Shown here: one piece after another, positions 9,419-60,478 of the stretch
How the letters are laid out: the number at the start of each line of letters is the position of its first letter
How positions within the stretch are numbered: the stretch's first letter is position 1
NCBI GenBank assembly: GCA_963845185.1
Contig: CAWJRG010000009.1
Coordinates: 320,001-384,000 of the forward strand
Direction: 5' to 3'
DNA from: an uncultured bacterium
Lineage (GTDB): Bacteria > Oederibacteriota > PGYV01 > CAWJRG01
Length of the DNA stretch: 64,000 nucleotides
Program-made: the position numbers and the translations under genes
The notes under the pieces: model-generated
Database searches by the model: none
The model's input: the letters and a program-made list of their open reading frames with translations, nothing else
Told to the model about the DNA's origin: nothing

Positions 9419-9639
9419 AGATGCGCTTTGAAAGCGAAAGAAAAAAGCAAAAAGTGTTAGACCTTGCTTCGTGCTTTATTAAATTTATTTTATGTCAAGA
9501 ACTGTTTTTTTCAGGAGAGGGAGATAAAGCACCCTCACCCTGTTCCTGTTGAAGAATACTTATTATATATTTTATGGACTCTCAACGTTGAATATTCCAC
9601 TGGAATATTCAACCCCTTCTCTGAAAAGGCTTGTCAAGC

Positions 9640-9790
9640 ACAAATCCAAGTATAAGGGCTAAAATGTTAATTAACCTTCTCTTCGCCGCAGTTCTTTTCA
9701 CCCGGCATTATAACAAATCAAATTAAGGCCCTCTAACCTCTCCCACAGCCCAGAAGATTTACTGACTCAGGGGAAAACAGAGCGGCCTAT
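9640..9790 (-). ncRNA. Putative bridge/seek RNA of the IS110 element (approximate limits)
   Basis: Two internal-loop stems; GGGAGAGG (9737-9744) matches the target flank and AGAGAAGG (9675-9682) matches the element end. Confidence 0.6.
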
Positions 9791-10808
9791 AAGTATATTT
9801 TTTATATATCCTTTCTTCATAACCACGATTTTCTTTGAGCATTTTAAATATTATTTCTGCCATGTGCCTTGCAACTGCTATTATTGCCTTGTTTGAACCT
9901 CTGCGGCTTTTTACGTTCAAGTATATTGATTTAAAATACAAAGAACTTCTTACCGCTGTCCAAGCTGCTTCTACAAACGCACATTTTAAATGTTTGTTTG
10001 CCTGCCTTATTATCGGACCTCTATGTATTGTTTTATTACTCGCATATTCGCTTGGAACCAATCCGGCATATGACGCTAATCGTTTTGCCTTAGAGAATCT
10101 ATTTATATCAACTATTTCAAACGCCACTACCTTTGAAAGAACTTCTCCAAATCCAGGTACCGTCTTTATTATTTCCACATATCTATCTTTCCCTGTCATT
10201 TCTTTTGCAAGTTTTTCTGTTGCCTTTATTCCTGTATTAAGTTCGTCCACCAAATGCATCTCGAGGTTCAGCAATTCACGTTCGCTTTTTACCAGTTCGA
10301 CTCTTTCTATTGTGTCCCTGCCTTTTTTCCCAAACAAATCGCTGTGTACGCTTGTATCTATATGGTTCCTTGTCAATAACTGGTGCACCCTATTTTTTAC
10401 AGCTGTCCGTGTGCTCACCAGGAATTGCCTCTCTCTTAATATGTTCTTCTTAAGCCTTATTTCCTTCGACGGCACATATACTTCCGGTATTAAATTTGCT
10501 CTCAACAAATGGGCCAATATCTCCGAATCCCTTACATCGTTTTTTATCTGGCTTTCCGCTATCGCTCTCAGCTTCTGCGCATGCGCCAATTTTGTCTTTA
10601 CGCCGAGTTCCTCCAAAAGGTCGTACACTACTCCCCAGCAGTACGTTGTCTCAATTACCGCTTCGCATTCCTCTCCAATCTCAGCCAGCATTTTCTTAAA
10701 ATCCTCTGTCCTGTTTGAAAGAGCTCCTCTAAATCTGACTTGACCTTCTTTTGTCACCGCTGTAACATAAGACACGTTCTTGTGCACGTCCACACCAAGA
10801 TACAACAT
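9759..10808 (-). CDS. IS110-family DEDD transposase/recombinase
   Basis: YLGVDVHK, VIETT, KNDVRDSEILA, VPGFG, LASYAGLVPSEYAS, KAIIAVARH; RBS aggagg. Confidence 0.95.
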   Translation of the reverse strand: MLYLGVDVHKNVSYVTAVTKEGQVRFRGALSNRTEDFKKMLAEIGEECEAVIETTYCWGVVYDLLEELGVKTKLAHAQKLRAIAESQIKNDVRDSEILAHLLRANLIPEVYVPSKEIRLKKNILRERQFLVSTRTAVKNRVHQLLTRNHIDTSVHSDLFGKKGRDTIERVELVKSERELLNLEMHLVDELNTGIKATEKLAKEMTGKDRYVEIIKTVPGFGEVLSKVVAFEIVDINRFSKAKRLASYAGLVPSEYASNKTIHRGPIIRQANKHLKCAFVEAAWTAVRSSLYFKSIYLNVKSRRGSNKAIIAVARHMAEIIFKMLKENRGYEERIYKKYTYRPLCFPLSQ

Positions 10809-10929
10809 ACGGCACCTCCTAGGTTTTTAATGTTGTGGGTGCTAACACACGCCACGTTACCATTATACCTGGGGGTGCCTTCTTTTCATATTACCTCTCC
10901 CGCAAGTGGGGGAGGGAGATAAGGATAAA

Positions 10930-41217: not shown

Positions 41218-43012
41218 TTTTTTCTTTTTTGGGGAAACAAACAAACCTATCAACACACAATAGTGTACATTAACCCCTTTGCATCGCCCTTTATTTTTTG
41301 CTAAATAAGGTGTATAATTGAAATAGAAAGGAGGTTAAAAAGAATGGTTAGGCACGCTTTAAATCTTCCACTTATCTATAAGCCGAAAACCTCAAAAAAC
41401 ACCACCCCGTTACAGCATTTAAAAAAGCCACACATATTTATAATATCCCTGCTTTTTATTGTCAGCATCGCATTGCCTGTTTATGTTTACGGCGACGACG
41501 TCTGGGCCGATTTCTTCGGCACATCAAGCACATCAGGCACGTGGGATACAGGCACAAGATATAACCCAAATACAACAATGAAACCGCCTCTTGTATTATT
41601 ATGGCAGAGTTACGACTGGAGAGGAAATACAATTAATGTTAATCCAACATGGAATGGCGCAAGTATAGTAAATGGAGTTGTATATTATGGTGAAGGCTCT
41701 CAAATTGGTATTCCACCCGGCTATTTATGGGCATGGGACAGCGCAACCGGAATTACAAAAACAGGTTTTCCTTTACAAACTTTAAACGGCATAGGCGATA
41801 CGCCTTGTATATTAGGAGAATATATCGGAGCAGGAACACTTCCTATAGAGGGTACTGGTAATAATTATTTATGGGATAGTTTAAGTTTAAATATAATTTC
41901 TGGATTTCCCGTTACAGTAGCTGCAAATACGGAAATTGAAGGTAGCCCGATTATACAAAATAATAGAATATATTTTTGTAATGGTGATACTGTCGGCACT
42001 AATAATTATTATTTATATTGTTATGACACAACAACCGGGAATTTAATATATAAAAATCCATTGCCTGCGTATGGCTCGGATTCAACGCCGTTTATTTATC
42101 AGGGCAAAATAATAATAACAAACTGGAACACAGGGCTTCGTGTATATTGTTTCAATGAATCCGACGGAAGCACGGTGCCGGGATATCCTTTGCAATTATC
42201 CGCAAACGGCGGGACAAACGCCTCGCCGGTCGTATATAACAACCGGATATATATTGATTCCGGAGAGGCGTTTTGGGCAATTGACATAAACACGGCTACA
42301 GTGCCAGCGCCTTTTCCGCTGACAATCACAGGCGGCAATATGTCCTCAACAATCGCGGCAGGGAATGGAAAAGTATATTTTGGGACAGCAGGCGGTTATA
42401 TATATGGAAATTATTTATACGGAATTGACGCGACAACAGGAGCAAATATTGCGGGTTTTCCTGTTACGCTTAACGGCAGCGCCAACATAGACGGCCCGAT
42501 AACTCTTGCAAACGGCGTGGCATATTTTGGAACTGATGAAAATAAAGTTTATGCCGTTGACGCGAATAACGGAACAAATTTATGGAGTTATCAATTGCCT
42601 GCGGGCATTGGTTATAGTGGTATTCAGTACATAATGGCGTCGGTTGCAGAAAATAAACTGGCAGTAACTAGTGTAAGTGGAAACGGGGTTTTTGTATTTT
42701 GTATGCCAAGCCCGACAATAACGCCGACAATAACTGAAACAGCAACACCAACTATGACCGAAACCATAACGCCTACTATGACTTACACAAACACATCTAC
42801 TTTGACCGGTACTTATACAATAACAGCCACGATTACGCAAAGCCAGACAATCTCACAGACAACGACAGAAACAATTACGCCGACAATATCAATGACATCA
42901 ACAATAACTCAAACTCTGATAATATGTTAAGTGTTTATTAGAATGCACGTGGGTTCCAAATCTTTGTTAAAATAGTTATGCGAGTAACAAAATAACAAAG
43001 GAGGAACCACAC

Positions 43013-44047
43013 ATGCATTATGTCGGAGTTGATCTTCACAAAGAACAGTCATGGTTTTACGTTTCAGATCATGAAGGCAAAAGACTTATCAGTAAGAGTA
43101 TATCAAATTCGGAAGAGGAATTGAAACGGATATTTGAAATGATCCCAAAGCCATTCAAGTTGGGAGTAGAGGCCACAAGAAACTGGTACTTTTTTGTTGA
43201 TTTAGCCGAGCTTTATGCGGAAGAAGTCAATCTCGCGAATTCTTTCGAGCTCAAGGCTTTTGCAAAACGAAATAAGAAAACCGACAAGATAGACGCAAAA
43301 CTAATTTGCGATGTTCTGCGAATGGGTTTTCTTCCGAAAGTCAACATACCGCCAAAGCCCATAAGAGAAATACGTGAATTAATAAAATATAGAATGTCCC
43401 TTGTGTATGAGCGAACTTATAATATCAACAGGCTCAAAAATACGATGGGAAAACTAGGGCACGAATGTTGCAGCGATCTTACAAGATATAAACACTTAGA
43501 CAAAGTACAGACGGAGGAATTACCGGAGATATATAAAACTGTTATTAAAGGGCATCAAGAAAGGATTAGATTTTTAACTGAAAAAATTAATAGTATGAAA
43601 TTGTATCTCAAAGAAACGTTTGAAAATGACCCTGATATTAAGAACCTGATTACAATACCAGGCTTGAGTTATCTAAGCGCGGCAATAGTAAAGAGCGAGA
43701 TGATAGATGTAGCAAATTTTGCATCTTTTAACCGCCTTTGTTCCTTTGCCGGACTAGCTCCGCGAGTGAGCCGGAGTGCTAAAAAAGATATACACGGGCC
43801 TTTAAGCAGAAACAGGCGTAAATTACTTCAGTGGATATTGTTGGAAATAGTTCCTCATTATGTTAGAGCCTCAGAGGAAAAGAAAGCAAGATTCGATGAA
43901 ATAGTTAAAAGAAAAAGTTATAATACGGCAAAAGTTGTATTGGCCAGGGATCTTTTAAAGGTAATATATAATGTGCTACGAGATAAAAGAGAATATTATA
44001 GAAATACAATTCGGTCAACGGCGGGTGTCGCGCTCCACGGTGTCTGA
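43013..44047 (+). CDS. IS110-family DEDD transposase/recombinase
   Basis: YVGVDLHK, GVEAT, KTDKIDA, IPGL, SFAGLAPRVSRS, AKVVLAR; RBS aggagg. Confidence 0.95.
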   Translation: MHYVGVDLHKEQSWFYVSDHEGKRLISKSISNSEEELKRIFEMIPKPFKLGVEATRNWYFFVDLAELYAEEVNLANSFELKAFAKRNKKTDKIDAKLICDVLRMGFLPKVNIPPKPIREIRELIKYRMSLVYERTYNINRLKNTMGKLGHECCSDLTRYKHLDKVQTEELPEIYKTVIKGHQERIRFLTEKINSMKLYLKETFENDPDIKNLITIPGLSYLSAAIVKSEMIDVANFASFNRLCSFAGLAPRVSRSAKKDIHGPLSRNRRKLLQWILLEIVPHYVRASEEKKARFDEIVKRKSYNTAKVVLARDLLKVIYNVLRDKREYYRNTIRSTAGVALHGV

Positions 44048-44190
44048 AGTGCGTTTTTTAACGCAGCTTCGTTAGGTCTGATTAGCGGGCATCCGCTGTC
44101 CAAGATTATCAAGCAGGCAGGCAATAGTCCTGCGCTGCCAATGGGTGACTGAAACCGGATTATTCCGGGTTTCTTGAGATAACAACGGAC
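44011..44190 (+). ncRNA. Putative bridge/seek RNA (approximate limits)
   Basis: Target guides ACGGTGTC (44037-44044) and TCTGA (44077-44081); donor guides ATTATCA (44105-44111) and AATGGGTGA (44140-44148); each pair flanks a hairpin. Confidence 0.72.
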
Positions 44191-44680
44191 GGCTGAATGA
44201 AATTACAGAGGATTAACAAGGATTGGAATTCATTAACGTGATACGTGTCTTTATATTTGACAAACACTTAAATGGGTGACACCGTCGCCCACATATACTA
44301 TAACGCCGACAAAGACTGAAGTTCCGGCATCTTTTTATTTTAGATTAATAGCAAACTCTCCAAACCCAGCGAATAACTATACTTATATTATTTATGAGAT
44401 AGGCATAGGAGCAGAAGTAAAAGTAATAATATACACAATAAGCGGTGAAAAAGTAACTACGCTTGAGCAAGAAGGCTCGCAGGGAAGAAACCGCCTTCGA
44501 TGGAACTGCAAAAATTTTGCAGGCCATGACGTAGCAAGCGGAGTATATATTTATAGAATTGAAGCAGTATCAGGCAGCAATAAAGCAAAAGCGTGGAGTA
44601 AACTGGCGGTTTTAAGGTGATAGAACTATCTTAAGTGGTGTTTTATATGGTGAAAACCATTTCTGTTTATTAAAATTAAC

Positions 44681-44815: not shown

Positions 44816-47800
44816 GTGAACACAAGAAACCAGGTCAATAAATTCAAAAATACAATAATATTATTATTTTTATTTATGATATTTCTTTCATTAGTCCAAA
44901 GCCTTTCAGCCGCGGCAGCTTATACGTGGACGAATGTAGTTGTTCCAGCCGGAGGATTTGTGGCTGGCGTGGATTACAGCCCGGTGCAGCAAGGGCTTAT
45001 TTATGCCAGAACCGATATGGGCGGTTTTTACCGCTGGGATAACACCAACAACGTCTGGATACCTTTAACCGATATGTATGGCCTAAGCCAGTATACCTAT
45101 CACGGCGGTGAAAGCATAGCACCTGACCCGGTCAATGCTAATAACGTTTATGCGGCGGCTGGAATGTATTTAACCAACGGTAATGGGGCTATACTCAGTT
45201 CAACTAACCAGGGCACTTCCTGGACAATCAATCCAATTGCAGTTCCCATGGGAGGCAATAATGACGGCAGGGAAGCAGGTGAACGCCTTGCTGTCGACCC
45301 GAACCTAAACAGCATACTCTATTTCGCTTCACGTAATAACGGTCTTTGGAAAAGCACCAATTCAGCTGCCACTTGGGCACAGGTCGCAAGTTTCCCGACA
45401 AACGGCGACGCCAATTATGGATTAACCTATGTAATTTTTCTTCCTGGCGGAAATCCTTCCTCCGGCACAGAAACTATTTTTGTCGGCGTGGATTCCATGA
45501 GCGCGGGAAACAGCAGCCTCTACCGTTCCACGAACGCCGGCAGTAGCTGGGCCGTGGTCCCAGGCGGGCCTACCAACATGATAACTCCACATGCTTCATT
45601 AGGAACAGACGGGACTTTGTGGATTGTATATGACAGCGGCGGATACGGTCCCAACAGCATTACCACGGGGCAAATTTGGAAATTAAACACCAGCACACTG
45701 GCTTGGACACAGGTAACTTTACCTGGACCGGCTGCAGGTAACGGGGGATATGGTGGGATATGCGTGGACCATCAAAACGCCCAACACGTAGTTGTCTCAA
45801 CCCTGGATTGGTGGGGTGGCCCAGACCATATCTACAGTACCACCAATGGCGGGACAAGCTGGTCAGTCATAGGGAACGCACAAAACAGCTGGGACGCTGC
45901 GCCTTATGCTGTTTACAACAACAATGGAGCATTATGGACAAGATTTTGCGGTACATATGACGGAGGTACAGGATGGCAGGGGGACATCAAGATAGACCCT
46001 TTTAATTCAAACAATGCTATATATACCACAGGAGGAGGCGTTTGGAGCAGTACCAGTATAGAGGCAGGGACGCAGCCCGCTGGTGTCACCTGGATTTTCA
46101 CCGACTATGGATTGGAGGAAACGGCTGTAACCGATATGATAACTTCAGCACCGGGTGGGGTTTTCTTCAGCGCAGTGGGGGATATAACCGGGATGCGGCA
46201 TCCAAACGTAACACAATCTCCTCCGCTTGGAATGTATTGTGACCCATCCATGAGTACCACAGACGGCATTGATTATGCTGAACTTAACACGAATTTTGTG
46301 GTTCGCGAGGGGCACAGTTTATCAAGCGGCACCACTTCTGCCGGCGGATATTCCACTGATAACGGGCAGACCTGGACAGCTTTTGGCTCAAACCCGAACG
46401 GTTATTCTACAAGCGGCGGAAACGGGCAAATATCAGTAAATGCCAACGGTACTGTGATTCTTTGGGCGCTGCCTTCCAGCACAGCAGTATATTCTTCAAA
46501 CAACGGCACGACCTGGAATAATACATCAGGACTCCCTAACGGAGCTCAAATATGTTCGGACAGGGCAAATAATACTATATTTTATGGTATTTCAGGCACA
46601 ACACTTTATGTCAGTACAAACAGCGGGGCCAGCTTTTCCAGCGCGGGTACATATTCAGGCAGCATATCATGGGCTAACAGGCCAAGGGCTGTTTTTGGCA
46701 TAGCAGGTGAAGTCTGGGTTCCGACAGGCAGTGGCCTCTATCGGTTTACTAATGTAGGTTTGGGAACTGTGGCAACCACGCAGATTGCAAATGTGTCAAG
46801 CGCAGTGGCTGTAGGATTTGGCAAGGCGGCTTCAGGACAAACACATCCAGCGGTTTACCTGGCTGGGACTTTGAGCGGAACCTATGGCTTTTTCCGTTGC
46901 GATGACGGAGTCGGTACCACCTGGACCCAAATAAACGACGCTAATCACCAGTTCGGCGCGGCTGAATTCGCAGCAGGGGACGAAACGGTTTACGGCCGCA
47001 TGTATGTAGGTACCAATGGAAGGGGCATTCTTTATGGCGACATTTCTACTTCAGGTACTTCTACTGTAACACCGGCAATAACTTTAACTTATACAAGTAC
47101 AGCTACGCCAAATCCGACGAGAACTTTTACACCAACATATTCATACACATTGACTTCAACAAGGACGTCAAGCCCGACATATACCAGCACCCAGCAGATG
47201 ACACCGACTTCGACAGGAACAGCAACCGCAACTGTTACGAACACATCTTCATACACTTCAACTTCTACACGAACAGCAACGCAGACCTCAACGCTATCGC
47301 GGACATCTACCTTTACTCCAACAAATACGCCGACATATACAATTACAATAACATCAACAAGCACGCAACAGAATACGGTTACTTTAACAGAAACAAGGAC
47401 AAATACCGGCACTTATACAGCGACAGGGACTAATACCCCGGTACCCACAGGAACAAATACTGTAACACCTTCTTTAACGGCAACAAGAACAAACACGGTA
47501 ACATCTACCTTGACTGCGACTTCTACATCAACATATACAGTAACTCTGACATGGACAAACACCTTACAGAATACTGAAACTTTAACGGCTACAGGGACAA
47601 ATACAACATTGTCAACGGCAACAAGGACAAATACAAGCACATATACTGCGACAGAAACAAATACAGCAACACAGACATCAACAGCAACACGGACAAACAC
47701 TGCAACGACGACATTTACTGCGACAGCTACTCCAACATACACAATTACTCTGACATGGACAAGCACGTCACAAAACACAGTAACTTTAACTTCAACAGGA

Positions 47801-50161
47801 ACAAATACTGCAACACCTTCCTTAACGGCAACACGAACAAATACGGTAACGTCGACTTTGACTGCTACACCTACGCCAACATATACAGTTACATTAACAT
47901 GGACAAACACGTTGCAGAACACGGCAACTTTAACGGCGACACGTACAAATACATCAACGCTGACATTCACTGAGACAATTACGCCAACATATACAGTTAC
48001 ATTAACATGGACAAACACGTTGCAGAACACAGCAACTTTAACGGCGACACGTACAAATACATCAACGCTGACATTCACTGAGACAGTTACACCAACATAT
48101 ACAGTTACATTAACTTGGACAAATACACCACAGAACACGGCAACTTTATCAACGACATCTACTCTTACGGCGACAAGGACAAATACTGCGACGAATACAC
48201 CCACATATTCTGCTACAGCGACATGGACACTTACATTTACAACTACTTTTACGGTGACAGGAACATTCACGGAGACATTAACTTTAACAAGAACGATAAC
48301 ATCAACGCTAACTAATTCACCTGTGGTATCAGAAACACCAACTTATACAGCAACGATTTTTACCCCGACAATTACGCCAACGTCCACAATATCACCGACA
48401 ATTACATTGACAGATACAGCATCGCCTACTGGGACACCAACTTTTACTGCGACAAGGACAAACACAGGCACAAATACGCCGACTTATACAGTAACTTTGA
48501 CATGGACAAACACATCACAGAACACAGTAACATTTACAGCTACGGGAACAAATACGACAAATCCTACAGGTACAAGTACAGGGACACCTACACTTACAGT
48601 TACACGGACAACTACAGTTACAAATACGCCGATAAACACACCTTCATATACAGTAACATTGACTTATACATTGACAGTTACATCAACATTTACCAATTCA
48701 CCGGTGGTATCACCTACGCCGACATTTACTAATATAATATTCACATGGACAATTACGCAGACTTCTACCTCATCGCCAACAATCACATTGACAAATACAC
48801 CATTACCAACAGGTACAGATACGGAGACGGTTACGTTCACTGCGACAAAAACAGACTCCGCAACCACAACCTTCACTGTTACACCTACGCCAACATATAC
48901 AGTTACATTAACATGGACAAGTACGTTGCAGAATACTGCCACTTTAACAGCAACAGGAACAAATATAGCGTCGCCTACAGTTACATATACAAATACCTGC
49001 GATTGTACGGGCACAGAAACAGTGACACCTACATTTACGTTTGTAGCGACAAGGACAAACACCGGAACATCGACAGTGACGAATACGTCCACAAATACAC
49101 CTTCGTTTACAGAAACATTGACATCCACAACAACAATTACATTAACATTAACTAATACTGAGGTTGTGTCAGAAACACCGACTTATACAGCGACAATTTT
49201 TACGCCGACAATTTCACCGACGTCTACCGTAACACCAACAATAACATTGACAGATACACCATCACTAACAGACACGGTAACGTCGACTGCAACAGAAACA
49301 GAGACAAGGACAAATACATTATTACCTACACTTACAAATACGCCAGAGAATACCGCAACAAGCACAGTGACGCCTACTGTAGGAGCAAACCTTGTAGCGG
49401 ATATTACTATTTCACAGGGGAGTGCAATGATAGGGCAGGATATAACCGTAATAATGCAGGTAGTAAATACAGGGACAAATGGCGTGAATAATTTACAGCC
49501 TTCAGCGCTGGCTCAAACAGGCGGTGGAACAGCTATCCTTATAAGCGGGCCCATGCCTGCAAGCACTGCAATAGTCTCAGATTCATCAGGATCATTTACG
49601 TGGGTATATACAGTGACTTCCGTGGCAGGAAATATAGCATTCAGCGGGTCGGCAAGCGGCACAGACGCGATAAACGGCACAATAGTATCAACTGCGATAG
49701 TGACCAGCAATCCATTAATATGCGTTACAGCCACGGCAACAATAGCAAATTCAATTACAATTACCGTAACGCCGACATATACAATAACGCCTAGTATTAC
49801 GACAACAAATCCAGTTGCGACAGCCAGCTTTACACCGACAAACCAGGTTCCTGTTTTCACGGCTACAGCCACATTTGTAATTACTACACAGCCGCCAGGG
49901 CCGCCAAGGATATATCCAAACCCAGTAAAAGACAGGTTTAGATATGTATTTACCCTGACGGAAGATGCAGATATAGAAATAACTATATATACAGCGTCAT
50001 ACAGGCTGATAGCAAAATTTGATCAGTGGCAGAGCGCAGGATTAAATACTATTATAATCGGCGTACAAGGCTTGGCAAACGGTACATATTTTATCGTATA
50101 CAAGCAAAAAGGTCAGACAACAAATACAAAGAGAATTGATAAATTTATCATTTTAAAATAA
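44816..50161 (+). CDS. Secreted GH74 xyloglucanase with ~800-aa Thr-rich stalk, Ig-like domain and C-terminal sorting-like domain
   Basis: Signal peptide; IYARTDMGG, GGNNDGREAGERLAVDP, IDPFNSN, GLEET, YVGTNGRGILYGD; C-terminus IYPNP...GLANGTY...KFIILK. Confidence 0.92.
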   Translation: MNTRNQVNKFKNTIILLFLFMIFLSLVQSLSAAAAYTWTNVVVPAGGFVAGVDYSPVQQGLIYARTDMGGFYRWDNTNNVWIPLTDMYGLSQYTYHGGESIAPDPVNANNVYAAAGMYLTNGNGAILSSTNQGTSWTINPIAVPMGGNNDGREAGERLAVDPNLNSILYFASRNNGLWKSTNSAATWAQVASFPTNGDANYGLTYVIFLPGGNPSSGTETIFVGVDSMSAGNSSLYRSTNAGSSWAVVPGGPTNMITPHASLGTDGTLWIVYDSGGYGPNSITTGQIWKLNTSTLAWTQVTLPGPAAGNGGYGGICVDHQNAQHVVVSTLDWWGGPDHIYSTTNGGTSWSVIGNAQNSWDAAPYAVYNNNGALWTRFCGTYDGGTGWQGDIKIDPFNSNNAIYTTGGGVWSSTSIEAGTQPAGVTWIFTDYGLEETAVTDMITSAPGGVFFSAVGDITGMRHPNVTQSPPLGMYCDPSMSTTDGIDYAELNTNFVVREGHSLSSGTTSAGGYSTDNGQTWTAFGSNPNGYSTSGGNGQISVNANGTVILWALPSSTAVYSSNNGTTWNNTSGLPNGAQICSDRANNTIFYGISGTTLYVSTNSGASFSSAGTYSGSISWANRPRAVFGIAGEVWVPTGSGLYRFTNVGLGTVATTQIANVSSAVAVGFGKAASGQTHPAVYLAGTLSGTYGFFRCDDGVGTTWTQINDANHQFGAAEFAAGDETVYGRMYVGTNGRGILYGDISTSGTSTVTPAITLTYTSTATPNPTRTFTPTYSYTLTSTRTSSPTYTSTQQMTPTSTGTATATVTNTSSYTSTSTRTATQTSTLSRTSTFTPTNTPTYTITITSTSTQQNTVTLTETRTNTGTYTATGTNTPVPTGTNTVTPSLTATRTNTVTSTLTATSTSTYTVTLTWTNTLQNTETLTATGTNTTLSTATRTNTSTYTATETNTATQTSTATRTNTATTTFTATATPTYTITLTWTSTSQNTVTLTSTGTNTATPSLTATRTNTVTSTLTATPTPTYTVTLTWTNTLQNTATLTATRTNTSTLTFTETITPTYTVTLTWTNTLQNTATLTATRTNTSTLTFTETVTPTYTVTLTWTNTPQNTATLSTTSTLTATRTNTATNTPTYSATATWTLTFTTTFTVTGTFTETLTLTRTITSTLTNSPVVSETPTYTATIFTPTITPTSTISPTITLTDTASPTGTPTFTATRTNTGTNTPTYTVTLTWTNTSQNTVTFTATGTNTTNPTGTSTGTPTLTVTRTTTVTNTPINTPSYTVTLTYTLTVTSTFTNSPVVSPTPTFTNIIFTWTITQTSTSSPTITLTNTPLPTGTDTETVTFTATKTDSATTTFTVTPTPTYTVTLTWTSTLQNTATLTATGTNIASPTVTYTNTCDCTGTETVTPTFTFVATRTNTGTSTVTNTSTNTPSFTETLTSTTTITLTLTNTEVVSETPTYTATIFTPTISPTSTVTPTITLTDTPSLTDTVTSTATETETRTNTLLPTLTNTPENTATSTVTPTVGANLVADITISQGSAMIGQDITVIMQVVNTGTNGVNNLQPSALAQTGGGTAILISGPMPASTAIVSDSSGSFTWVYTVTSVAGNIAFSGSASGTDAINGTIVSTAIVTSNPLICVTATATIANSITITVTPTYTITPSITTTNPVATASFTPTNQVPVFTATATFVITTQPPGPPRIYPNPVKDRFRYVFTLTEDADIEITIYTASYRLIAKFDQWQSAGLNTIIIGVQGLANGTYFIVYKQKGQTTNTKRIDKFIILK
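47873..48150 (+). repeat. 108-bp (36-aa) near-identical tandem repeat, about 2.5 copies
   Basis: atatacagttacattaac recurs at 47881, 47989, 48097. Confidence 0.85.
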
Positions 50162-50829: not shown

Positions 50830-53800
50830 ATGAAAATCAAAGTAATATCCATATTAATTTGCCTTATTGCATTAGGCATGTCATCAATTATTTATGGTGG
50901 AAACTGCACTGTTGATTGGGGAACAGTGCATCAAAGCATAAGAGGTTTTGGCGCATGCAGTGCATGGAGCAGTACTGCCTTTCCGAGTGCACTTGCCGAC
51001 TTTTTTTTCGATACCAGCGGGTCAAATTTAGGCATATCAATTTACCGAACAAGAATACCCCCCGACGGAACAATGACAGGAGAAATTTCTTCAGTGCAGG
51101 AAGCTCTTGCCCGGAATGCAAATATTATTGTTTGGGCAGCGCCGTGGTCGCCGCCAGCGAGCATGAAAAACACCGATAATGTCGATACTGGTGTACTTTT
51201 GACATCGGATTACCAAGCATATGCAAATTATCTCACTACTTACGCTAAAAATTTCCAAACGGCAGCCGGTGTAGGATTGTATGCTATGTCAGCACAGAAT
51301 GAACCTGATTGGCCCACAGGCTCTTATGAGGGTTGCACATGGAGCGCCCAGCAACTGCATGATTTTATATTAAATAACCTTGGCCCAGCAATGGCATCAA
51401 GCAACCCAAATGTAAAAATAATGATGCCAGAATCTTTTGGCGATAATCTGGCTATGTCAGACACTACATTAAATGATTCCAATGCGGCGAAATATGTAAG
51501 TGTAGTAGGAGAGCATCTGTACGGCCTGAGCGGAAATGAACCCAAAACTCCCAATGCTTATCCATTGGCTGTTTCACTCGGCAAGGAGTACTGGGAAACA
51601 GAATTCTACAATAACAGCCTTTCTTCTTATGACGCCACCATGACCGAAGGGTTAAATACAGCAGTCCAAATGCATGATGCCCTTACAATAGCAAATTTTA
51701 ATGCCTACCATTACTGGTGGTTTGTCTCGAGCGGGACAGACAACGGCGGTTTGGTGCCAACCGGCACCACATCATCATCAGGTGCGCCAAAAACGGCTTT
51801 TTGTTTTGGCCAATTCTCGAAGTTTATTAGGCCCGGTTATGTCAGGATGGACAGTACTGTCAATCCTACAAGCGGAGTTTATGTATCGGCATATCAATTG
51901 GCATCAACCGGCGCCTTCGTAATAGTAGCCATTAATACAAATTCATCCACAACGAGCCAGTCGTTTACCCTGAATGCAATGTCTGTTTCATCAGTTACAC
52001 CGTGGGTTACCGACCCAAACAACAGCCTGACACAGCAAGGCGCTCAGGCGGTATCGGGAAATAGCTTTACATACAATTTGACTGCCAGCAGCGTAACAAC
52101 TTTTATCGGAGTAAGCGGGAATATTACTGTTTCACCCACTGTTACGTTTACGATAACGCAGACTCCCACGCCGGTTTGCGGAGTGGAGCTTGATAATTTT
52201 GCCTCGTGCAGCACCACAAATGCCTGGGGTGCAGGCTGGTATGATTTTGCTGATACAGGTACTACTTTAACACCATCACCATTAACGCTTGCATCAACTT
52301 CATCTGGATCGTCGGGATGTTCCGCACAGATAAGCGGAACACAGAGTACCAGTGGTTATGCCGGTCTTGGCACAAACCTGGATTCCGCTGGAACAACAGT
52401 GAATATGACTGCTTATACGGGTGTCCAATTTTACGTGAAGGGAGATGGTGGTACATATTGGTTTCAGGTTACAGAACCAAGTGTAACAGATGGGGATAAT
52501 TTTGGACATTCTTTTACTGCTCCGACAACATGGACGCTAGTTACCATATACTTTTCAAGTCTTGCGCAGCGCGGATTCGGGACAGCAGAAACTTTTACTC
52601 AAAATCAACTTGAAGCCCTTCAGTGGATGACAACTGCAGCGGGAAGCTTTAATCTTGATATTGATGATATAGTTTTGATCAGCTCTGCGTGCAATTCTCC
52701 CACTAATACGCCAAATATGACTAAAACTAATACGCCGACTCTTACAAGGACTCCTACGTCAGCACAAAGTCCGACATCTTCTTCAACCGCAAGTTATACT
52801 GTAACAGCAACAAGGACAAGCACATTAACAACAACAGCCACGGCAACTCTAACAGGCACATATACGGCAACAGGAACATTAACGCCTGTTAATACTGCCA
52901 CATTGACCATAACTCAGACTTTCACACTAACGTCAAGCAGGACAGCTACTTCTTCAAATACAGCAACAGGCACGTTAACATTCACACCGACACTTACAGT
53001 TACAAAAACAAACACATTAACAAATACGCCTACATATACAGTCACTCTGACTTGGACAATAACATCACAAAACACAGCAACTTTAACAGCCACAAATACA
53101 AATACAGCATTGCCGGCAGCTACAAGGACAAATACCGGGACAAATACCATTACAATGACAGAGACAAGCACAGGAACGCCTACGCTTACTGTGACAAAAA
53201 CAAACACATTGACAAATACTCCTACTTATACAGTTACGCTGACCTGGACAAACACGGCACAGAACACGATAACTTTAACAGCAACAGGGACAAACACACT
53301 ATTGCCGACAGGGACAAGTACATCGACGCCTACATTTACTTCGACAAGGACAAATACACCGACATATACATTAACTCTGACTTGGACAAATACACCGCAG
53401 AACACGTCGACTTTAACTTCAACGGGCACAAACACAGTATCAATGACGGCTACAAGGACAAATAGCGGGACAAATACAATTACAATGACAGAAACCAGCA
53501 CGCCATTGAATACAGCGACTTTAACAGCAACAGACACAAATACTGCAACGCTAACGCTTACTACTACAAGAACAAATACTTTAACTGTCACTTTGACAAG
53601 TACAATGTCCAACACAGCGACGCCGACATTGACAGTGACATTAACTTTCACGAGGACAGTTACACCAACAAATACAAATTCACCAGCAGTATCACCAACG
53701 CCGACATTTACGAATATAGTATTTACGTGGACAATTACGCAAACATTCACTGTATCGCCGACAATTACATTGACAGATACACCGCTGCCAACGGGAACTA

Positions 53801-55773
53801 ATACGGGGACGCCAACATTTACAGTAACAAGAACAAACACGGTGACAAATACGCCGACGTATACAGTTACACTAACTTGGACAAGCACACTACAAAACAC
53901 GGCAACTTTAACGGCAACAGGCACAAGCACTACGACAAGGACGCCCACGTACACAATTACACTGACTTTTACATCGACAGTTACACCGACAAATACCAAT
54001 TCACCTGTGGTGTCACCCACACCTACATTTACTAATATAGTTTTTACATGGACAATAACGCAGACATTTACTATATCGCCGACAATAACAATAACAAATA
54101 CACCTCTGCCGACTGGAACAAATACGGGAACACCTACGTTTACTACAACAAGGACAAACACAGAAACATCAACTTTTACTATGACACATACGCCAACGAA
54201 CACAGCAACTCTGACTTGGACAAGCACAGCACAGAATACGGCGACTTTAACAGCAACAGATACAAATACACCGTTACCGACAAGCACAAGCACAAACACA
54301 ACGACACCTACTTTTACAGCTACGAGGACAAACACAGCGACTGATACTCCGACAAACGCGCCTTCATATACAGTAACATTGACTTTTACATTGACGGTTA
54401 CATCAACATTTACCAATTCGCCGGTGGTATCACCTACGCCGACATTTACTAATATAATATTCACGTGGACGATTACGCAAACATTTACAATATCGCCGAC
54501 AATAACAATTACAAACACTCCTACGCATACACCGAGCGATACTCCAACAAATACACTTACTAATACAGAAACAAACACACTGGTAAATACAGCGACAGAT
54601 ACGCTTGTTAATACAAAGACAAACACGCCAGTAAATACAGCAACTGATACACCCATCAATACAGAGACAGATACACCGGTTAATACTGCGACAGATACAC
54701 CAATAAATACAGCAACGGATACACCAGTAAATACAGCAACAGACACACCGGTTGATACAGATACAGACACGCCGGTTGTGTCAGAAACACCGACTTATAC
54801 AGCGACAATTTTTACGCCGACAATTTCACCGACGTCTACCATAACACCAACAATAACATTGACAGATACACCATCATTAACAGACACGGCAACATCGACT
54901 GCAACAGAAACAGAGACTTGGACAAATACATTATTACCTACACTTACAAATACGCCAGAGAATACCGCAACAAGCACAGTGACGCCTACTGTGGGAGCAA
55001 ATCTTGTAGTGGCTATTACTATTTCGCCAGGGAATGCAATGGTTGGCCAGAATATAACCGTAATAATGCAGGTAGTAAATACAGGGACAAATGGTGTGAA
55101 TAATTTACAACCTTCAGCGCTGGCTCAAACAGGCGGTGGAACAGCTGTCCTTGTAAGCGGACCCATGCCTGTAAGCACTGCAATAGTTTCAGATTCAACA
55201 GGATCATTTACATGGGTATATACAGTGACTTCCGTGGCAGGAAATATAGCATTTAGCGGGTCGGCAAGCGGAACAGACGCGATAAACGGCACAATAGTAT
55301 CAAGCTCAATAGTATCAAGTAGTCCATTAATATGCGTTACAGCCACAGCAACAATAGCAAATTCAATTACAGTTACCGTAACATCAACATATACGATAAC
55401 GCCGAGTATTACGGCGACAAATCCAGTGGCGACAGCCAGCTTTACACCGACAAACCAGGTTCCTGTTTTCACGGCTACAGCCACATTTGTAATTACTACG
55501 CAGTTGCCAGGGCCGCCAAGGATATATCCAAACCCGGTAAAAGACAGGTTTAGATATGTATTTCCCCTGACGGAAGATGCAGATATAGAAATAACCATAT
55601 ATACAGCGTCATACAGGTTGATAGCAAGATTTGACCAGAGACAGAGCGCGGGATTAAACACTATTGTAATAGACACACAAGGCATGGCAAACGGAACATA
55701 TTTTATAGTATATAAGCAAAAAGGGCAGACAACAAATACAAAGAGAATTGATAAATTTATTGTATTAAAATAA
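50830..55773 (+). CDS. Secreted GH30 (glucuronoxylanase-like) + CBM11/CIA30-like module + Thr-rich stalk + C-terminal sorting-like domain
   Basis: QSIRGFG, WAAPWSPPASMK, QNEPD, YWETE, AYHYWW, FGQFSKFIRPGYVR; then GVQFYVKGDG...WTLVTIYFSSL..RGFG...LDIDDI. Confidence 0.9.
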   Translation: MKIKVISILICLIALGMSSIIYGGNCTVDWGTVHQSIRGFGACSAWSSTAFPSALADFFFDTSGSNLGISIYRTRIPPDGTMTGEISSVQEALARNANIIVWAAPWSPPASMKNTDNVDTGVLLTSDYQAYANYLTTYAKNFQTAAGVGLYAMSAQNEPDWPTGSYEGCTWSAQQLHDFILNNLGPAMASSNPNVKIMMPESFGDNLAMSDTTLNDSNAAKYVSVVGEHLYGLSGNEPKTPNAYPLAVSLGKEYWETEFYNNSLSSYDATMTEGLNTAVQMHDALTIANFNAYHYWWFVSSGTDNGGLVPTGTTSSSGAPKTAFCFGQFSKFIRPGYVRMDSTVNPTSGVYVSAYQLASTGAFVIVAINTNSSTTSQSFTLNAMSVSSVTPWVTDPNNSLTQQGAQAVSGNSFTYNLTASSVTTFIGVSGNITVSPTVTFTITQTPTPVCGVELDNFASCSTTNAWGAGWYDFADTGTTLTPSPLTLASTSSGSSGCSAQISGTQSTSGYAGLGTNLDSAGTTVNMTAYTGVQFYVKGDGGTYWFQVTEPSVTDGDNFGHSFTAPTTWTLVTIYFSSLAQRGFGTAETFTQNQLEALQWMTTAAGSFNLDIDDIVLISSACNSPTNTPNMTKTNTPTLTRTPTSAQSPTSSSTASYTVTATRTSTLTTTATATLTGTYTATGTLTPVNTATLTITQTFTLTSSRTATSSNTATGTLTFTPTLTVTKTNTLTNTPTYTVTLTWTITSQNTATLTATNTNTALPAATRTNTGTNTITMTETSTGTPTLTVTKTNTLTNTPTYTVTLTWTNTAQNTITLTATGTNTLLPTGTSTSTPTFTSTRTNTPTYTLTLTWTNTPQNTSTLTSTGTNTVSMTATRTNSGTNTITMTETSTPLNTATLTATDTNTATLTLTTTRTNTLTVTLTSTMSNTATPTLTVTLTFTRTVTPTNTNSPAVSPTPTFTNIVFTWTITQTFTVSPTITLTDTPLPTGTNTGTPTFTVTRTNTVTNTPTYTVTLTWTSTLQNTATLTATGTSTTTRTPTYTITLTFTSTVTPTNTNSPVVSPTPTFTNIVFTWTITQTFTISPTITITNTPLPTGTNTGTPTFTTTRTNTETSTFTMTHTPTNTATLTWTSTAQNTATLTATDTNTPLPTSTSTNTTTPTFTATRTNTATDTPTNAPSYTVTLTFTLTVTSTFTNSPVVSPTPTFTNIIFTWTITQTFTISPTITITNTPTHTPSDTPTNTLTNTETNTLVNTATDTLVNTKTNTPVNTATDTPINTETDTPVNTATDTPINTATDTPVNTATDTPVDTDTDTPVVSETPTYTATIFTPTISPTSTITPTITLTDTPSLTDTATSTATETETWTNTLLPTLTNTPENTATSTVTPTVGANLVVAITISPGNAMVGQNITVIMQVVNTGTNGVNNLQPSALAQTGGGTAVLVSGPMPVSTAIVSDSTGSFTWVYTVTSVAGNIAFSGSASGTDAINGTIVSSSIVSSSPLICVTATATIANSITVTVTSTYTITPSITATNPVATASFTPTNQVPVFTATATFVITTQLPGPPRIYPNPVKDRFRYVFPLTEDADIEITIYTASYRLIARFDQRQSAGLNTIVIDTQGMANGTYFIVYKQKGQTTNTKRIDKFIVLK
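54585..54775 (+). repeat. 24-bp (8-aa, NTATDTP[V/I]) tandem repeats
   Basis: About 8 units visible in the translation and DNA. Confidence 0.8.
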
Positions 55774-55876: not shown

Positions 55877-58800
55877 ATGAAAAAAAAATTACAGAATACC
55901 TTGAGAGTCATAACTGCATATTTAATAATATTATTTTTATTTTCATTTAAACTTTTTGCAGCAAATACTGATATTCGCCTGAATTCGCTGGGTTTCCAGC
56001 CAAGTTACAATAAATATGCATCAATAGATTTGACTTGTACAAATTTCTATGTTGTAACTGTACCAGCTGGTGTGACTGTTTATACTGGCACGGTTGGAAA
56101 TGCCATTAACGCAACAGACAGCGGGGAAACAGTAAGAGTAGCAGATTTTTCATCGTTAACGACCGAAGGAACATATTGCGTTAATGTACCTGGAGTCGGG
56201 AACTCAGCGACCTTTTCAATAAATAAAACGGTTTATAATAATGCATTTTATATGGCCATGAAAGCAATGTATTTGTGGAGATGCGGAACAGCGGTATCAT
56301 ATACATATCCGGCAGACGGTAATACTTATTCCCATGCAGCCTGCCATGAAAATGACGCTTATCTTGATGATGTAGGAGGGCCTAATGGGACTATTAAAAC
56401 AGCCACAGAAGGCTGGCATGATGCAGGTGATTATAATAAATATACTGTAAACGCGGCTATAACACTGGGCATGATGTATATGGCCTGGGAACAGTTCCAA
56501 AATAAGATTAACCAAATACCTTTGAACCTTCCTGTAACTGCTGCCGGATACCCGGAATACCTCGAAGAAACAAAATGGGAGACTGACTGGCTGCTTACAA
56601 TGCAGGCTTCAAATGGAGGAGTATATGACAAGGTAAGTGAAGCTGCTTTCTGCGCTTTTATAATGCCTGAAGCAAATACCGTAGACAGGTACTTTTGGGG
56701 TTATGGCAATATTGGGACGGTTGAAACGGCAACATTCTGCGCTGTGATGGCGATGGGCGCGAGAATATATTCACCTTATGATTCTGCTTATTCGACGAAA
56801 TGCCTTAATGCAGCATCAGCCGCCTATAGTTATCTGACAAATAATGCGACTAACACCACGGCAAACCTTACGGGATGCACGACCGGGAACTATAGCACAA
56901 GCGATGCCAATGAAGGAAGACTTTGGGCAGCTGCGGAAATGTGGGAGACGACAGGTACCGCTACGTTTTTGAATGATTTTGAAACAAGGGCAAATGGATA
57001 TTCTCCAACTTATGTTGATTCTGATTTTGACTGGTCGAATGATAAAAACCTTGGCATGTATACATACGTTCTGTCAACAAAATCAGGAAAGAATGCCACG
57101 CTTCTGACAAATATTAAAAATAATATCATATCCGATGCTAATGGAATCACGACAACTGCATTCAGCCATCCTTATGGACGTCCGCTTGGCACAAACTATT
57201 ACTGGGGATGCAACGGAGGCAATGAGAGGACGGCCATGCTCCTGCAAATAGCAAACCAAATATCGCCGAGTACTAATTATCTTAACGGCGTACTTGATGC
57301 TGTTGCTTATGTCTTTGGCAGAAATATGCATGACAGGTCGTATATTACAGGTGTTGGAATCAACCCGCCGATGAACCCGCACCACAGGCCTTCGGGAGCA
57401 GACGGCATTACCAATCCATGGCCGGGATACATGGTCGGAGGGTCATCAGGAGCAAACAGCAATGACCCTGTTGAAACACTCACGCCGACAGGGCTACCGC
57501 CTGCAGAATACTGGACAGACCAGCAGGGAGCGTATTCGTCAAATGAGGTTGCAATAAATTGGGAGGGCGCGCTTATTTACGCTCTTGCAGGGTTTATAGA
57601 TTTTGATATAACTAATACAGTGACAGTATCGCCGACCCTTACAAAGACAACACAACCAACGTTCACAATTACTCCAACACAAACAGCCACAGGGACTAGG
57701 ACAGATACTTTTACCATAACTCCGACAAGTACTCCAAGCAGAACTGCTTCAGGCACTTTTACAGCTACGGCAACGTTTTCCGGAACCCAAACGTTGACAT
57801 TAACGCAAACATTTACTTATTCTGTAACTGCCACATGGTCGCCTACGAGAACAGGCACACCCACTTATTCAAGCACTGTTTCCGCTACGTCTACATTCAC
57901 CGGGACAGTGACACCAAGTTTTTCCCAAACCAACACAATACTTTTATCAAGGACAGCAACTCCTACTTTCAGCTTTACGGCAACAATGTCATTTACAGCG
58001 ACAGGGACAGAAACGCCAACCAGCACTCCTACAGCTTCCAATACCATTACAAGCACATTTACTGGAACAACGACACAGACACGCACGTCGTCATTTACAG
58101 ATACGGCTACTTTTACCTTGACAGTAACGTCAACATTTTCTCCTACGTCGACTTATACGCAGACTTCTACCGCCACAAGAACAGCTACTTTGACATATAC
58201 TTTGACTAATACGGCCACTTCAACTTTTAGTGCAACGGGCACGGATACACTTACAGCCTCGGCTACCAGAACTCCTTCGGCAAGTTTAACAATAAGCATT
58301 ACACTCACGAATACGTCAACGCCATCATTTACGCAAAGCGCGACAGTAACTAATTCAAGTACATTAACACAAACAGCTTTTTATACTGCAACAAAGACAT
58401 TTACGTTAACAGCGACAGGGACAGAAACGCCAACCAGCACTCCTACAGCTTCCAATACCATTACAAGCACATTTACTGGTACAACGACGCAGACACGCAC
58501 ACCTTCGTTTACAAATACATTGACTTTTACTTTCACATCAACATCAACTCTTTCTGTCACGCCGACAGATACACGGACTTCTACCTTGACCGCCACAATA
58601 ACAAATTCGCCGGTAGTATCGCCAACTCCCACATTTACAAATATTGTGTTTACATGGACAATAACACCAACATATTCCATTTCCCCAACGGTAACGCTGA
58701 CGTCGAGTAGCACACTAACGAATACGGCAACGCCCTCGTTTACAGCGAGTGTTACAGGAACTAATTCAAGTACGGCAACACAAACAGTTTCTTATACAGC

Positions 58801-60478
58801 AACAAGGACATTTACATTAACGGCGACAGGGACAGCAACGCCAACCAGTACGCCTACAGCTTCAAATACCATTACAAGCACTTTGACTGGCACAGCGACG
58901 CAGACGCGGACGCCTTCGGTTACAGATACGGGCACTTTTACTGCAACAACAACATTAACCATCTCTAATACACCAACACATACACCAACTTTTACTTTGA
59001 CAATTACAATTACAAATTCGCCGACCATTACATTAACAGCGACAGGGACAAGTACGCCAACCAGTACTCCCACAGCTTCAAATTCAATAACAGTCACTTT
59101 TACGGGTACAGCGACTCATACTCAGACACCTACACTTACAGATACGCCGACTTTTACTTTAACAGTAACGTTAACACTTTCTTATACTCCAACACATACC
59201 CCTACTTTCACTTTGACCGTCACAATAACAAATTCACCGGTTGTATCGCCAACACCCACATTCACAAATATAGTGTTTACGTGGACAATAACACCGACAT
59301 ATACTATTTCCCCAACAATAACACTTACGATGACGTCGAGCAATACACTAACAAATACAGCAACACCGACAAGCACATTTACAGGGACTGTGACACAGAC
59401 ACCTTCATTTACATATTCGGCAACTTTCACTTTGACGGCTACATTAACTCTGTCTCCAACGCAGACATATAGCTCAACTTCTACTTTGACAATAACACTA
59501 ACGCTTTCTTCCACGAAAACAGAAACGACGACTTGCACTTTGACAGCCACAATTACAGATTCGCCAGTAATATCACCGACACCTACATTTACTTCTATTA
59601 TTTTTACATGGACAATAACACCGACATTAACAATTTCCCCAACGATAACACTGACTCAGGCAAATACATTTACAAATACTCCAACATCCTCTATCACAGT
59701 TACAAGCACGGAGACACAGACACCTTCGTATACAGATACGGAGACTCTTACTCTGACATTAACGTCAACGCTTTCTTCGACGGCTACAGAAACGTCGACT
59801 TGCACTTTGACAGTCACAATTACAAATTCTCCTGTGGTAACGCCAACGCCGACATTCACAAATATTGTGTTTACGTGGACAATAACGCCGACATATACTA
59901 TTTCCGCAACAATAACGCTGACGCCAAGCAATACACTTACAAATACACCAACGATTTCATTGACACCAAGCGCTACAGGAACTAATTCGAGCACAGAGAC
60001 GCAAACAGTTTCCTTTACAGCAACCGCAACAGTTACATTTACAAATTCAATAACGCCTTCAGAAACATTAACACTTTCTCAAACACTTACAGCTTCAACC
60101 ACATTAACTCCAACGATAAACCCCATATTAACAATAACAGCGACAGCCACTGTAGAGCAGGAAAAACACAAAAAGCCAAAACCATATCCCAACCCTTTGA
60201 ATCCAAAAATAATACCGGAATTATATATTGCATATAGTTTTGATGATACAGATATTGACAGTGTAAAGTTCAGAATGTATACATCGGCTTACAGATTAAT
60301 AAGGGAAATAAAATTTGAAAAGTCAGAAGCCATGGCAATGGCACAACAGGGAATAATAACGTGCTCGACGGACGGGTTAAAAGATTTAAGCAGCGGTTCA
60401 TATTTTTATATTATTTTAACAGAAAAAGCAGGAAAAGAACAAAGTTCAAAAATCGATACTATTATTATTTTAAAATGA
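55877..60478 (+). CDS. Secreted GH9 endoglucanase (CelD-N Ig + catalytic) + Thr-rich stalk + C-terminal sorting-like domain
   Basis: [49 protein letters not shown]-terminus PYPNP...LSSGSYFY...IIILK. Confidence 0.93.

Follow-up and report, generated by a model that had tools for sequence, protein, structure and literature searches.

What decides where an RNA-guided transposon inserts, and is a surface-protein gene interrupted by such an element the victim of an incidental hit or the carrier of a switch? The question is raised by an insertion sequence (IS) of the IS110 family in a stretch of 64,000 nucleotides (nt), hereafter the window, which corresponds to positions 320,001 to 384,000 of contig CAWJRG010000009.1 from an uncultured bacterium. 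The element splits a gene for a beta-propeller protein with a threonine (Thr)-rich linker and a C-terminal sorting domain. A first-pass annotation recognised four guide segments in the element and proposed that it is aimed at Thr-linker coding DNA, that it exploits an abundant repeat-gene family and that it might act as a reversible switch. The analysis reported here leads us to a partly different answer: very probably, this is an IS1111-type IS110 element that works like the known bridge-RNA/seekRNA elements, and its presence in a surface-protein gene is an incidental, near-cognate hit.

Results

The element occupies 1360 base pairs (bp) of the window (42920-44279), contains one open reading frame (ORF) and is of the IS1111 type. 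Its left junction reads caaactc-TGA-taatatg and its right junction aaatggg-TGA-caccgtc. The same TGA, which is contained in the guides described below, stands at both junctions in the window and in every relative with both ends located. Since arbitrary targets, if duplicated over 3 bp, would give different triplets at different sites, the TGA is a core shared by target and element and not a target duplication. The element thus combines the absence of terminal inverted repeats and of a target duplication with a short shared core, as IS110 elements do. A perfect 10-bp inverted repeat is found in subterminal position (TTAAGTGTTT on the left; AAACACTTAA, 44262-44271, on the right), leaving terminal extensions of 7 bp on the left (TAATATG) and of 5 bp (ATGGG) plus the TGA core on the right, a tally that changes with the assignment of the core. 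Relatives keep the left end, TGATAATATG, and the right non-coding end (229 nt, 44048-44276) is longer than the 93-nt left one. If the two ends were abutted, as in a circular intermediate, they would form TTGACA-17 nt-TAATAT, a predicted perfect promoter present only when right and left ends meet, with the TAATAT of the left terminus as its -10 box. In every relative with the right end located, TTGAC is separated from it by the same distance. The element is intact and apparently young.

The ORF encodes a transposase that matches the Pfam families PF01548 (DEDD_Tnp_IS110, 5.6e-23, residues 4-145) and PF02371 (Transposase_20, 2.7e-13, residues 211-292) as well as the NCBIfam equivalog NF033542, 'IS110 family RNA-guided transposase' (195.4 bits for a cut-off of 140). 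By sequence, its sole solved relatives in PDB are ISCro4 (2.2e-7) and IS621 (1.8e-6). The acidic positions of GVD, VEAT and KTDKID align with those of ISCro4, and FAGLAPRVSRSA aligns with FAGLTPRRYESG of ISCro4, serine on serine; by analogy with IS621, we take the aligned D..E..D..D positions and the C-terminal serine to be catalytic.

The region that overlaps and follows the end of the transposase gene is predicted to encode a structured RNA. The segment 44020-44185 folds at a minimum free energy of -65.5 kcal/mol (z -3.38), and only 1 of 200 shuffles folds as well. In an RNAalifold consensus of the window and 11 homologues (12 sequences), 27 of the 52 pairs show compensatory changes. The consensus fold starts with an outer helix (44021-34 with 44084-96) whose internal loop surrounds a conserved inner hairpin (44046-44055 with 44060-44070, within the target loop), continues with a second hairpin between single-stranded segments (44113-44121 with 44129-44138, within the donor loop) and closes with a third hairpin at its terminus. 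The guides correspond to the single-stranded segments. Anchored on the core, they match the right flank over 8 nt, the left flank over 5 nt, the left end over 7 nt and the right end over 9 nt, and all the strings quoted in the first-pass annotation, at both junctions and in the downstream RNA, are present. The 5-nt match TCTGA (44077-44081) is the 3' part of the 8-nt guide AGGTCTGA, which fits the occupied site (AACTCTGA) at 6 of 8 positions, 5 of them contiguous. In the target loop ACGGUGUC, the complement of the top strand (44037-44044), precedes AGGUCUGA, the complement of the bottom strand (44074-44081), and the donor loop is built alike: in both, the segment on the 5' side is complementary to the top strand of the right half, and that on the 3' side to the bottom strand of the left half. 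Structure and guide matches together predict the two-loop RNA, complementary to both strands, that is expected of an IS110 element.

Chance matching was assessed with 20000 mononucleotide shuffles of 44018-44190, the score being the longest core-anchored match for each junction half. The right-end match of 9 was reached by 14 shuffles, the right-target match of 8 by 70, the left-end match of 7 by 132 and the left-target match of 5 by 3229, so that TCTGA by itself is not significant; all four lengths at once were reached by none. A further helix proposed by RNAalifold, between the donor guide AUUAUC and a conserved downstream GAUAA (alignment A1 columns 94-99 and 171-176; 44106-44111 and ~44183-44188), is mostly invariant and is broken in two relatives whose guide differs, L023 and L029; we did not adopt it. 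Such pairing could let the RNA mask its own guide, or it could be fortuitous.

Guides and DNA partners change together among relatives. Transposase relatives at 83-45% protein identity were found at 24 loci in genome contigs and 50 in metagenome contigs, several contigs being common to both sets; 3 of 61 genomes, the window's own included, have a match at E <= 1e-40. All relative loci share one layout, and their guides, ends and flanks were taken via short conserved anchors, some loci being read by eye. For 14 complete insertions, the fit of each guide to its cognate partner was compared with 20000 permutations of the guide/partner pairing. The left flank scored 58/70 (permuted mean 41.3, reached by 0 permutations), the right end 85/98 (79.3, reached by 10), the left end 75/98 (71.9, reached by 242) and the right flank 60/84 (53.8, reached by 486). 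Individual loci illustrate these figures. The right flank predicted from the guide is the one observed in the window (GACACCGT), in L025 (GACCCCGT) and in L024 (GACCCCTT); for L020, GACCACGT is predicted and GACCACTG observed, and for L047, an 81% relative, GACCCCAT is predicted and GACCCCAG observed. On the left side, the guide of L047, GGGTCTGA, fits at 8 of 8 positions, that of L044 (also an 81% relative), AGGCTCTGA, equals its flank at 9 of 9, and guide and flank read alike in L028 (GGAGTTGA) and in L023 and L029 (AGGTGTGA). The element ends behave in the same way: in L023 and L029 the left end TGATACT goes with the guide AGTATCA, and the right ends ATGGGTGA, ATAGGTGA and ATGAGTGA each occur with their matching guide. 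With the Pfam and NCBIfam matches, this covariation bears out the first-pass identification of an IS110 element with four guide segments.

Given these guides, how good a target is the occupied site? Its 14 target positions include 12 matches; both mismatches fall in the left half, and the right half is perfect. Among the 105036 TGA sites of the genome (3.5 Mb), 6 reach at least 9 of the 11 non-core guide positions, the occupied site scoring 9/11, and the 6 best unoccupied sites are all outside Thr-rich sequence. The heptamer TGACACC does recur, as had been pointed out, at 47199, 49023, 57909 and 59961, in each case in a Thr-rich frame, but these sites fit only 4-5 of the 11 non-core positions, the commonest score of a random TGA site being 3/11. 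In the window TGACACC is found 11 times versus 4.0 +/- 1.8 expected (0/100 shuffles reach 11), and its copies in the stalk genes reflect x-TG ACA CCx codons. Genome-wide there are 256 copies (both strands, 3.5 Mb), which is not above the rough 1-in-4^7 expectation, so the motif is not visibly enriched. The family offers 44 distinct sites of insertion at which the left flank is long enough, and only the window's own has a Thr-rich flank.

The sole other trace of the element in the genome is a 153-bp left-end fragment (L002, contig C9:610057-610209), which is 100% identical. This truncated copy lies at AAGGTCTGA, where the left guide fits at 8 of 8 positions and where an inverted repeat (agaccttgctt/aagcaaggtct) belonging to an intergenic repeat unit ends. 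Its own right flank is lost, and a paralogous copy of the repeat (C9:14031) reads ...aagcaaggggTGAcaccgtc; the sequence that the guides probably fit in this intergenic repeat is AGGTCTGA-CACCGT. The truncated copy is abruptly joined to the interior of a gene duplicated ~800 bp away, which may reflect a deletion or rearrangement beside the element, or else a join made in assembly. Of a small repeat family that begins with gtgccagaccttgcttcgtgcgtttt, 5 copies were found (window 9456-9480; C9:609557, 610306, 14140 and 14771), and in two of them a distal arm, gcaacaagcaagg..TGA, bears the best target of the element. A candidate for a decayed left-end relic (AGGTCTGATAATA, window 7641, minus strand) was dropped, its alignment score being reached by 10 of 500 shuffles.

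L026, a relative with the same TGACACCGT flank, is in an apparently intergenic setting; L047, L036, L022 and L018 sit in an arm or the centre of an inverted repeat, GGGGTCAGACC...GGTCTGACCCC, and the target of L047 is a perfect 14+14 palindrome round the core. This suggests that the ancestral target of the clade was a palindromic motif, resembling repetitive extragenic palindromic (REP) sequences or terminators. IS1111-family elements reportedly target REP sequences, attC sites and Tn21 inverted repeats, to judge from the titles of papers. Many relatives and the truncated copy sit at inverted repeats like these elements, whereas the full copy is in coding DNA and not in a repeat of this type. 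In L020, the sequence to the right of the element looks like a tRNA gene that lacks its 5' third (anticodon-arm-like, T-arm-like, ...cacttacccca), and this element may have disrupted such a gene; ARAGORN called no tRNA in the L020 locus.

The Thr-linker insertion therefore looks incidental and near-cognate: 1 of 44 sites is Thr-rich, the stalk sites are poor matches, and the truncated copy has a perfect left-guide match elsewhere. The insertion site clearly appears to be guide-selected, but the linker genes offer no reservoir of good sites. Insertion efficiency would then be predicted to decrease from AGGTCTGACACCGT to the linker site AACTCTGACACCGT, then to the sites in paralogues and finally to scrambled sequences.

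The consequences for the host gene can be read from the frames on either side of the element (Table 1). The last four codons and the stop of the upstream ORF (42919-42930) come from the left end of the IS, and the downstream ORF bears a Por_Secre_tail/FlgD_ig sorting domain in Pfam. From the domains on either side, we conclude that the insertion severs the sorting domain from the protein, as the first-pass annotation had it. The restoration of the gene by excision, which it also predicted, holds in silico: deletion of 42920-44279 yields act ctg aca ccg tcg and puts the two parts into one frame. In many paralogues of the same genome, head and sorting domain are contiguous, with C-terminal parts 77-85% identical, and two of them (C6:70428 and C6:72577) read TITQTLTPS/Q uninterrupted across the insertion position. 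A 557-aa homologue from another sample, P0004, likewise combines a head of 50% identity with a sorting domain of 48% identity in a single protein. A protein search with the 528-aa head found no intact allele at >=90% identity; its best match was the interrupted form itself, P0002 (100%), the next-best protein was 73% identical, and P0003 (73%) had no clear match to the C-terminal piece. Three very large ORFs adjoin the gene (44816-50161, 50830-55773 and 55877-60478; 1781, 1647 and 1533 aa). The first ends in a Por_Secre_tail domain, Thr-rich frames were found at the sampled sites of the 1781-aa and 1533-aa ORFs, and the three form a surface-protein cluster beside the interrupted gene.

Table 1. 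Features of the element and of the interrupted gene, in window coordinates (aa, amino acids)
Feature	Position	Strand	Basis
Host gene, N-terminal part, 528 aa: signal-like start, PQQ/BamB-like beta-propeller, Thr-rich linker	41344..42930	+	PF13360 9.8e-14, PF01011 9.8e-9
Left TGA core copy, common to target and element	42917..42919	+	Sequence; TGA at both junctions in all relatives with both ends located
Left non-coding end, 93 nt	42920..43012	+	TAATAT 42920-42925; inverted repeat TTAAGTGTTT 42927-42936; GGAGG 43000-43004
Transposase (bridge recombinase), 344 aa, DEDD/RuvC-like N-terminal domain and Transposase_20 C-terminal domain	43013..44047	+	Pfam, NCBIfam and PDB matches
Putative bridge/seek RNA gene, ~155 nt, starting within the last transposase codons; target loop, donor loop, terminal hairpin	44021..44175	+	Ends inferred from conserved structure
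Guide 1, ACGGTGTC, target loop, 5' side	44037..44044	+	Complement of top strand, core GA and right flank CACCGT; reverse complement of GACACCGT
Guide 2, AGGTCTGA, target loop, 3' side, 8 nt	44074..44081	+	Same sense as left flank and core
Guide 3, ATTATCA, donor loop, 5' side	44105..44111	+	Complement of core and left end, TGATAAT
Guide 4, AATGGGTGA, donor loop, 3' side	44140..44148	+	Same sense as right end and core
Terminator-like hairpin with GTTTCTT after it; third helix of the conserved RNA fold	44155..44168	+	Compensatory changes in alignment columns 140-166
-35 half of predicted circle-junction promoter, TTGACA 44257-44262, overlapping right inverted repeat AAACACTTAA	44257..44271	+	Sequence
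Right TGA core copy	44277..44279	+	Sequence
Host gene, C-terminal part: end of Thr/Pro linker and type IX secretion-type C-terminal sorting domain	44277..44620 (ORF 44276-44620)	+	PF18962 2.7e-6, PF13860 4e-6

The window also holds a second, unrelated IS110-family element (9613-10901, minus strand, ~1288 bp), whose transposase has 28% protein identity to the one studied. It is present in 4 copies (the window; C1:322483-323481, C5:335693-336691 and C10:445301-446299), with 100% identity among three of them, and 99.3% for the remaining one, across the block that they share; the terminal sequences of this element are GGGAGAGGTAATATG... and ...TTGACAAGCCTTTTCAGAGAAGGG, and ctccc abounds in the flanks on its left side. 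C9:95566 and C6:73846 mark two further ORFs that resemble IS110 more distantly.

Discussion

The data strongly favour a machinery of the bridge-RNA/seekRNA kind. We propose that the DEDD transposase would bind a two-loop RNA of ~155 nt transcribed from the element's right end. Of the two loops, one would pair with both strands of the target AGGTC-TGA-CACCGT; the other would do so, again on both strands, with the element ends AATGGG-TGA-TAATAT as they are abutted in a circular intermediate. Joining of the ends would at the same time build the TTGACA-17-TAATAT promoter ahead of the transposase gene, and recombination would take place at the shared TGA core, leaving no target duplication.

The comparison with known systems supports this view. 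IS1111 elements with a 3' seekRNA or bridge RNA (ISEc11, ISKpn4 and ISPa11), as Siddiquee et al. 2024 (PMC11187229) and Durrant et al. 2024 (PMC11208160) describe them, keep the RNA, and the longer of their two non-coding regions, on the 3' side of the transposase gene, and right-end bridge RNAs are predicted in 93% of IS1111 elements (PMC11208160). The present element is alike in its longer downstream region with the predicted RNA and in its 344-aa DEDD transposase, 330-350 aa being the size described in PMC11187229. The same account places the top-strand target match of IS1111 seekRNAs 5' of the bottom-strand match, the order being reversed between the two groups, and describes circle-junction promoters for both families, IS110 and IS1111; strand-match order and predicted promoter are those of IS1111 here, as are the subterminal inverted repeats, the short extensions and the absence of a target duplication. 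The inverted repeat of 10 bp is within the 7-17 bp range of PMC11208160 but one below the 'usually 11-13 bp' of PMC11187229. The protein is divergent, with at most ~31% identity to the listed plasmid-borne family members (29-31% for these 15 of at least 5000 matching plasmid records, the best place of each being below 60% identity). The hosts of the clade are uncultured, in records labelled Omnitrophota, Elusimicrobiota, Endomicrobiales and others.

The core of IS621 is a CT dinucleotide, and that of the present element is TGA (or GA within TGA). With IS621 and ISCro4 (8wt6, 9t56) the element shares the two-loop RNA, target loop then donor loop, which reads both strands round a short core. However, the RNA is downstream of the gene here and upstream of it, in the left end, in IS621 (PMC11208160), and the order of the strand matches is reversed (PMC11187229).

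Several observations weigh against the reading of the locus as an IS1111-type, guide-directed element. The permutations ignore kinship among elements and hence overstate significance, and the signal of the right flank is the weakest of the four. L018 and L019, two relatives (83% and 82%) from one genome, share the right guide of the window copy, but their right flanks fit it at 1/6 and 3/6 only, so that right-guide pairing is not always visible; their left flanks fit the left guide well. The insertions of L018 and L019 may be off-target events driven by the left guide alone, or their guide may have been altered after insertion. With one full copy in the genome, just two sites bear on the target preference of this very element. 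In E-value mode, Rfam 15 matched no family to the RNA in 42700-44500. Finally, two minor details depart from the IS1111 pattern of PMC11187229: the right extension is of 5 nt plus the core where 3 bp are described (the left one, 7 or 6 bp in that account, agrees), and the C-terminal motif GLAPRVSRSA ends in SA where GL-P----S(t)G, with SG or TG and occasionally TA, is given.

How did an element of this kind come to lie in a linker gene? One tentative and rather unlikely view is that natural drift of the guide re-aimed an RNA-guided transposon and that the insertion could still be excised, as an occasional on/off switch. Sister elements have right guides for GACCCC.. and sites in palindromic motifs of the GGGGTC-TGA-CCCC type, and the right guide of the window copy and its nearest relatives differs from theirs by one or two bases (GACACCGT). 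The changed bases would open new sites, Thr-Pro codons included; the two left-guide mismatches would be tolerated when the right guide pairs perfectly, and L018 and L019 would be the converse case.

A dedicated switch, in which the sorting domain would be lost on insertion and regained on precise RNA-guided excision, is improbable in our view because the element is a single copy in one of many paralogues. The model for such a switch is IS492, an IS110-family element of Pseudoalteromonas atlantica, whose mobilisation has been credited with phase variation of an extracellular polymer (PMC2536512). Like IS492, the element interrupts a surface-related gene that its removal would restore. Deletion at the TGA core gives back the frame together with a junction like that of the paralogues, TITQTLTPS; apart from the insertion, each half of the gene is an open, undamaged frame, and all four guides fit the junctions, as excision would require. 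On the other hand, the left guide fits the occupied site imperfectly, and re-insertion into the gene family is not favoured because the paralogous sites are such poor targets. Among database proteins, the interrupted form of 528 aa alone reaches 90% identity to the head. Excision of IS621 is described as less efficient than insertion (PMC13626964), and a preprint reports a copy-out mechanism that preserves the donor copy (10.1101/2025.10.25.684509), in which case excision would not restore the gene.

The proposal that the element evolved to target the Thr-rich linker family, with TGACACC (Leu/Val/Met-Thr-Pro codons) as an abundant landing pad, is close to refuted. It accounts for the over-representation of TGACACC in the window, for its four further copies in Thr-rich frames of neighbouring genes and for the perfect 8-nt match of the right guide to the Thr-Pro-Ser codons of the occupied site. 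Yet those four sites score near the commonest random value, which argues that no abundant gene family is being exploited. The best unoccupied sites of the genome are elsewhere, and the enrichment in Thr-rich genes that the first-pass annotation would have expected of other copies does not appear, 43 of the 44 distinct family sites not being Thr-rich. L026, with its shared flank, and the truncated copy both lie outside such genes, and the guides probably fit the intergenic AGGTCTGA-CACCGT best. Scarcely credible, lastly, is the idea that the guide-like matches are coincidences or copies of the element's own ends and that the protein determines the target: TCTGA taken singly is indeed expected by chance and the right flanks of L018 and L019 misfit their guide, but the four matches never arise jointly in shuffles, guides and DNA partners change together across relatives of 45-83% protein identity, and the guides lie in internal loops between helices kept by compensatory changes.

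An incidental, guide-selected insertion thus remains the reading that we prefer, and it leaves the knowledge of IS110 and IS1111 elements unchanged: the locus is a clean, textbook-like case in which four guides can be read against both junctions. The clade is divergent and found in uncultured phyla, and its ~40 natural, co-varying guide/target pairs constitute a diverse set of bridge-recombinase orthologues that could be mined. The natural sites hint at an asymmetric tolerance of mismatches between the two target guides; if guide drift did occur, the clade would be a natural map of the mismatches tolerated by each guide half. For the host, the insertion most likely just abolishes the surface display of one among many paralogous beta-propeller proteins.

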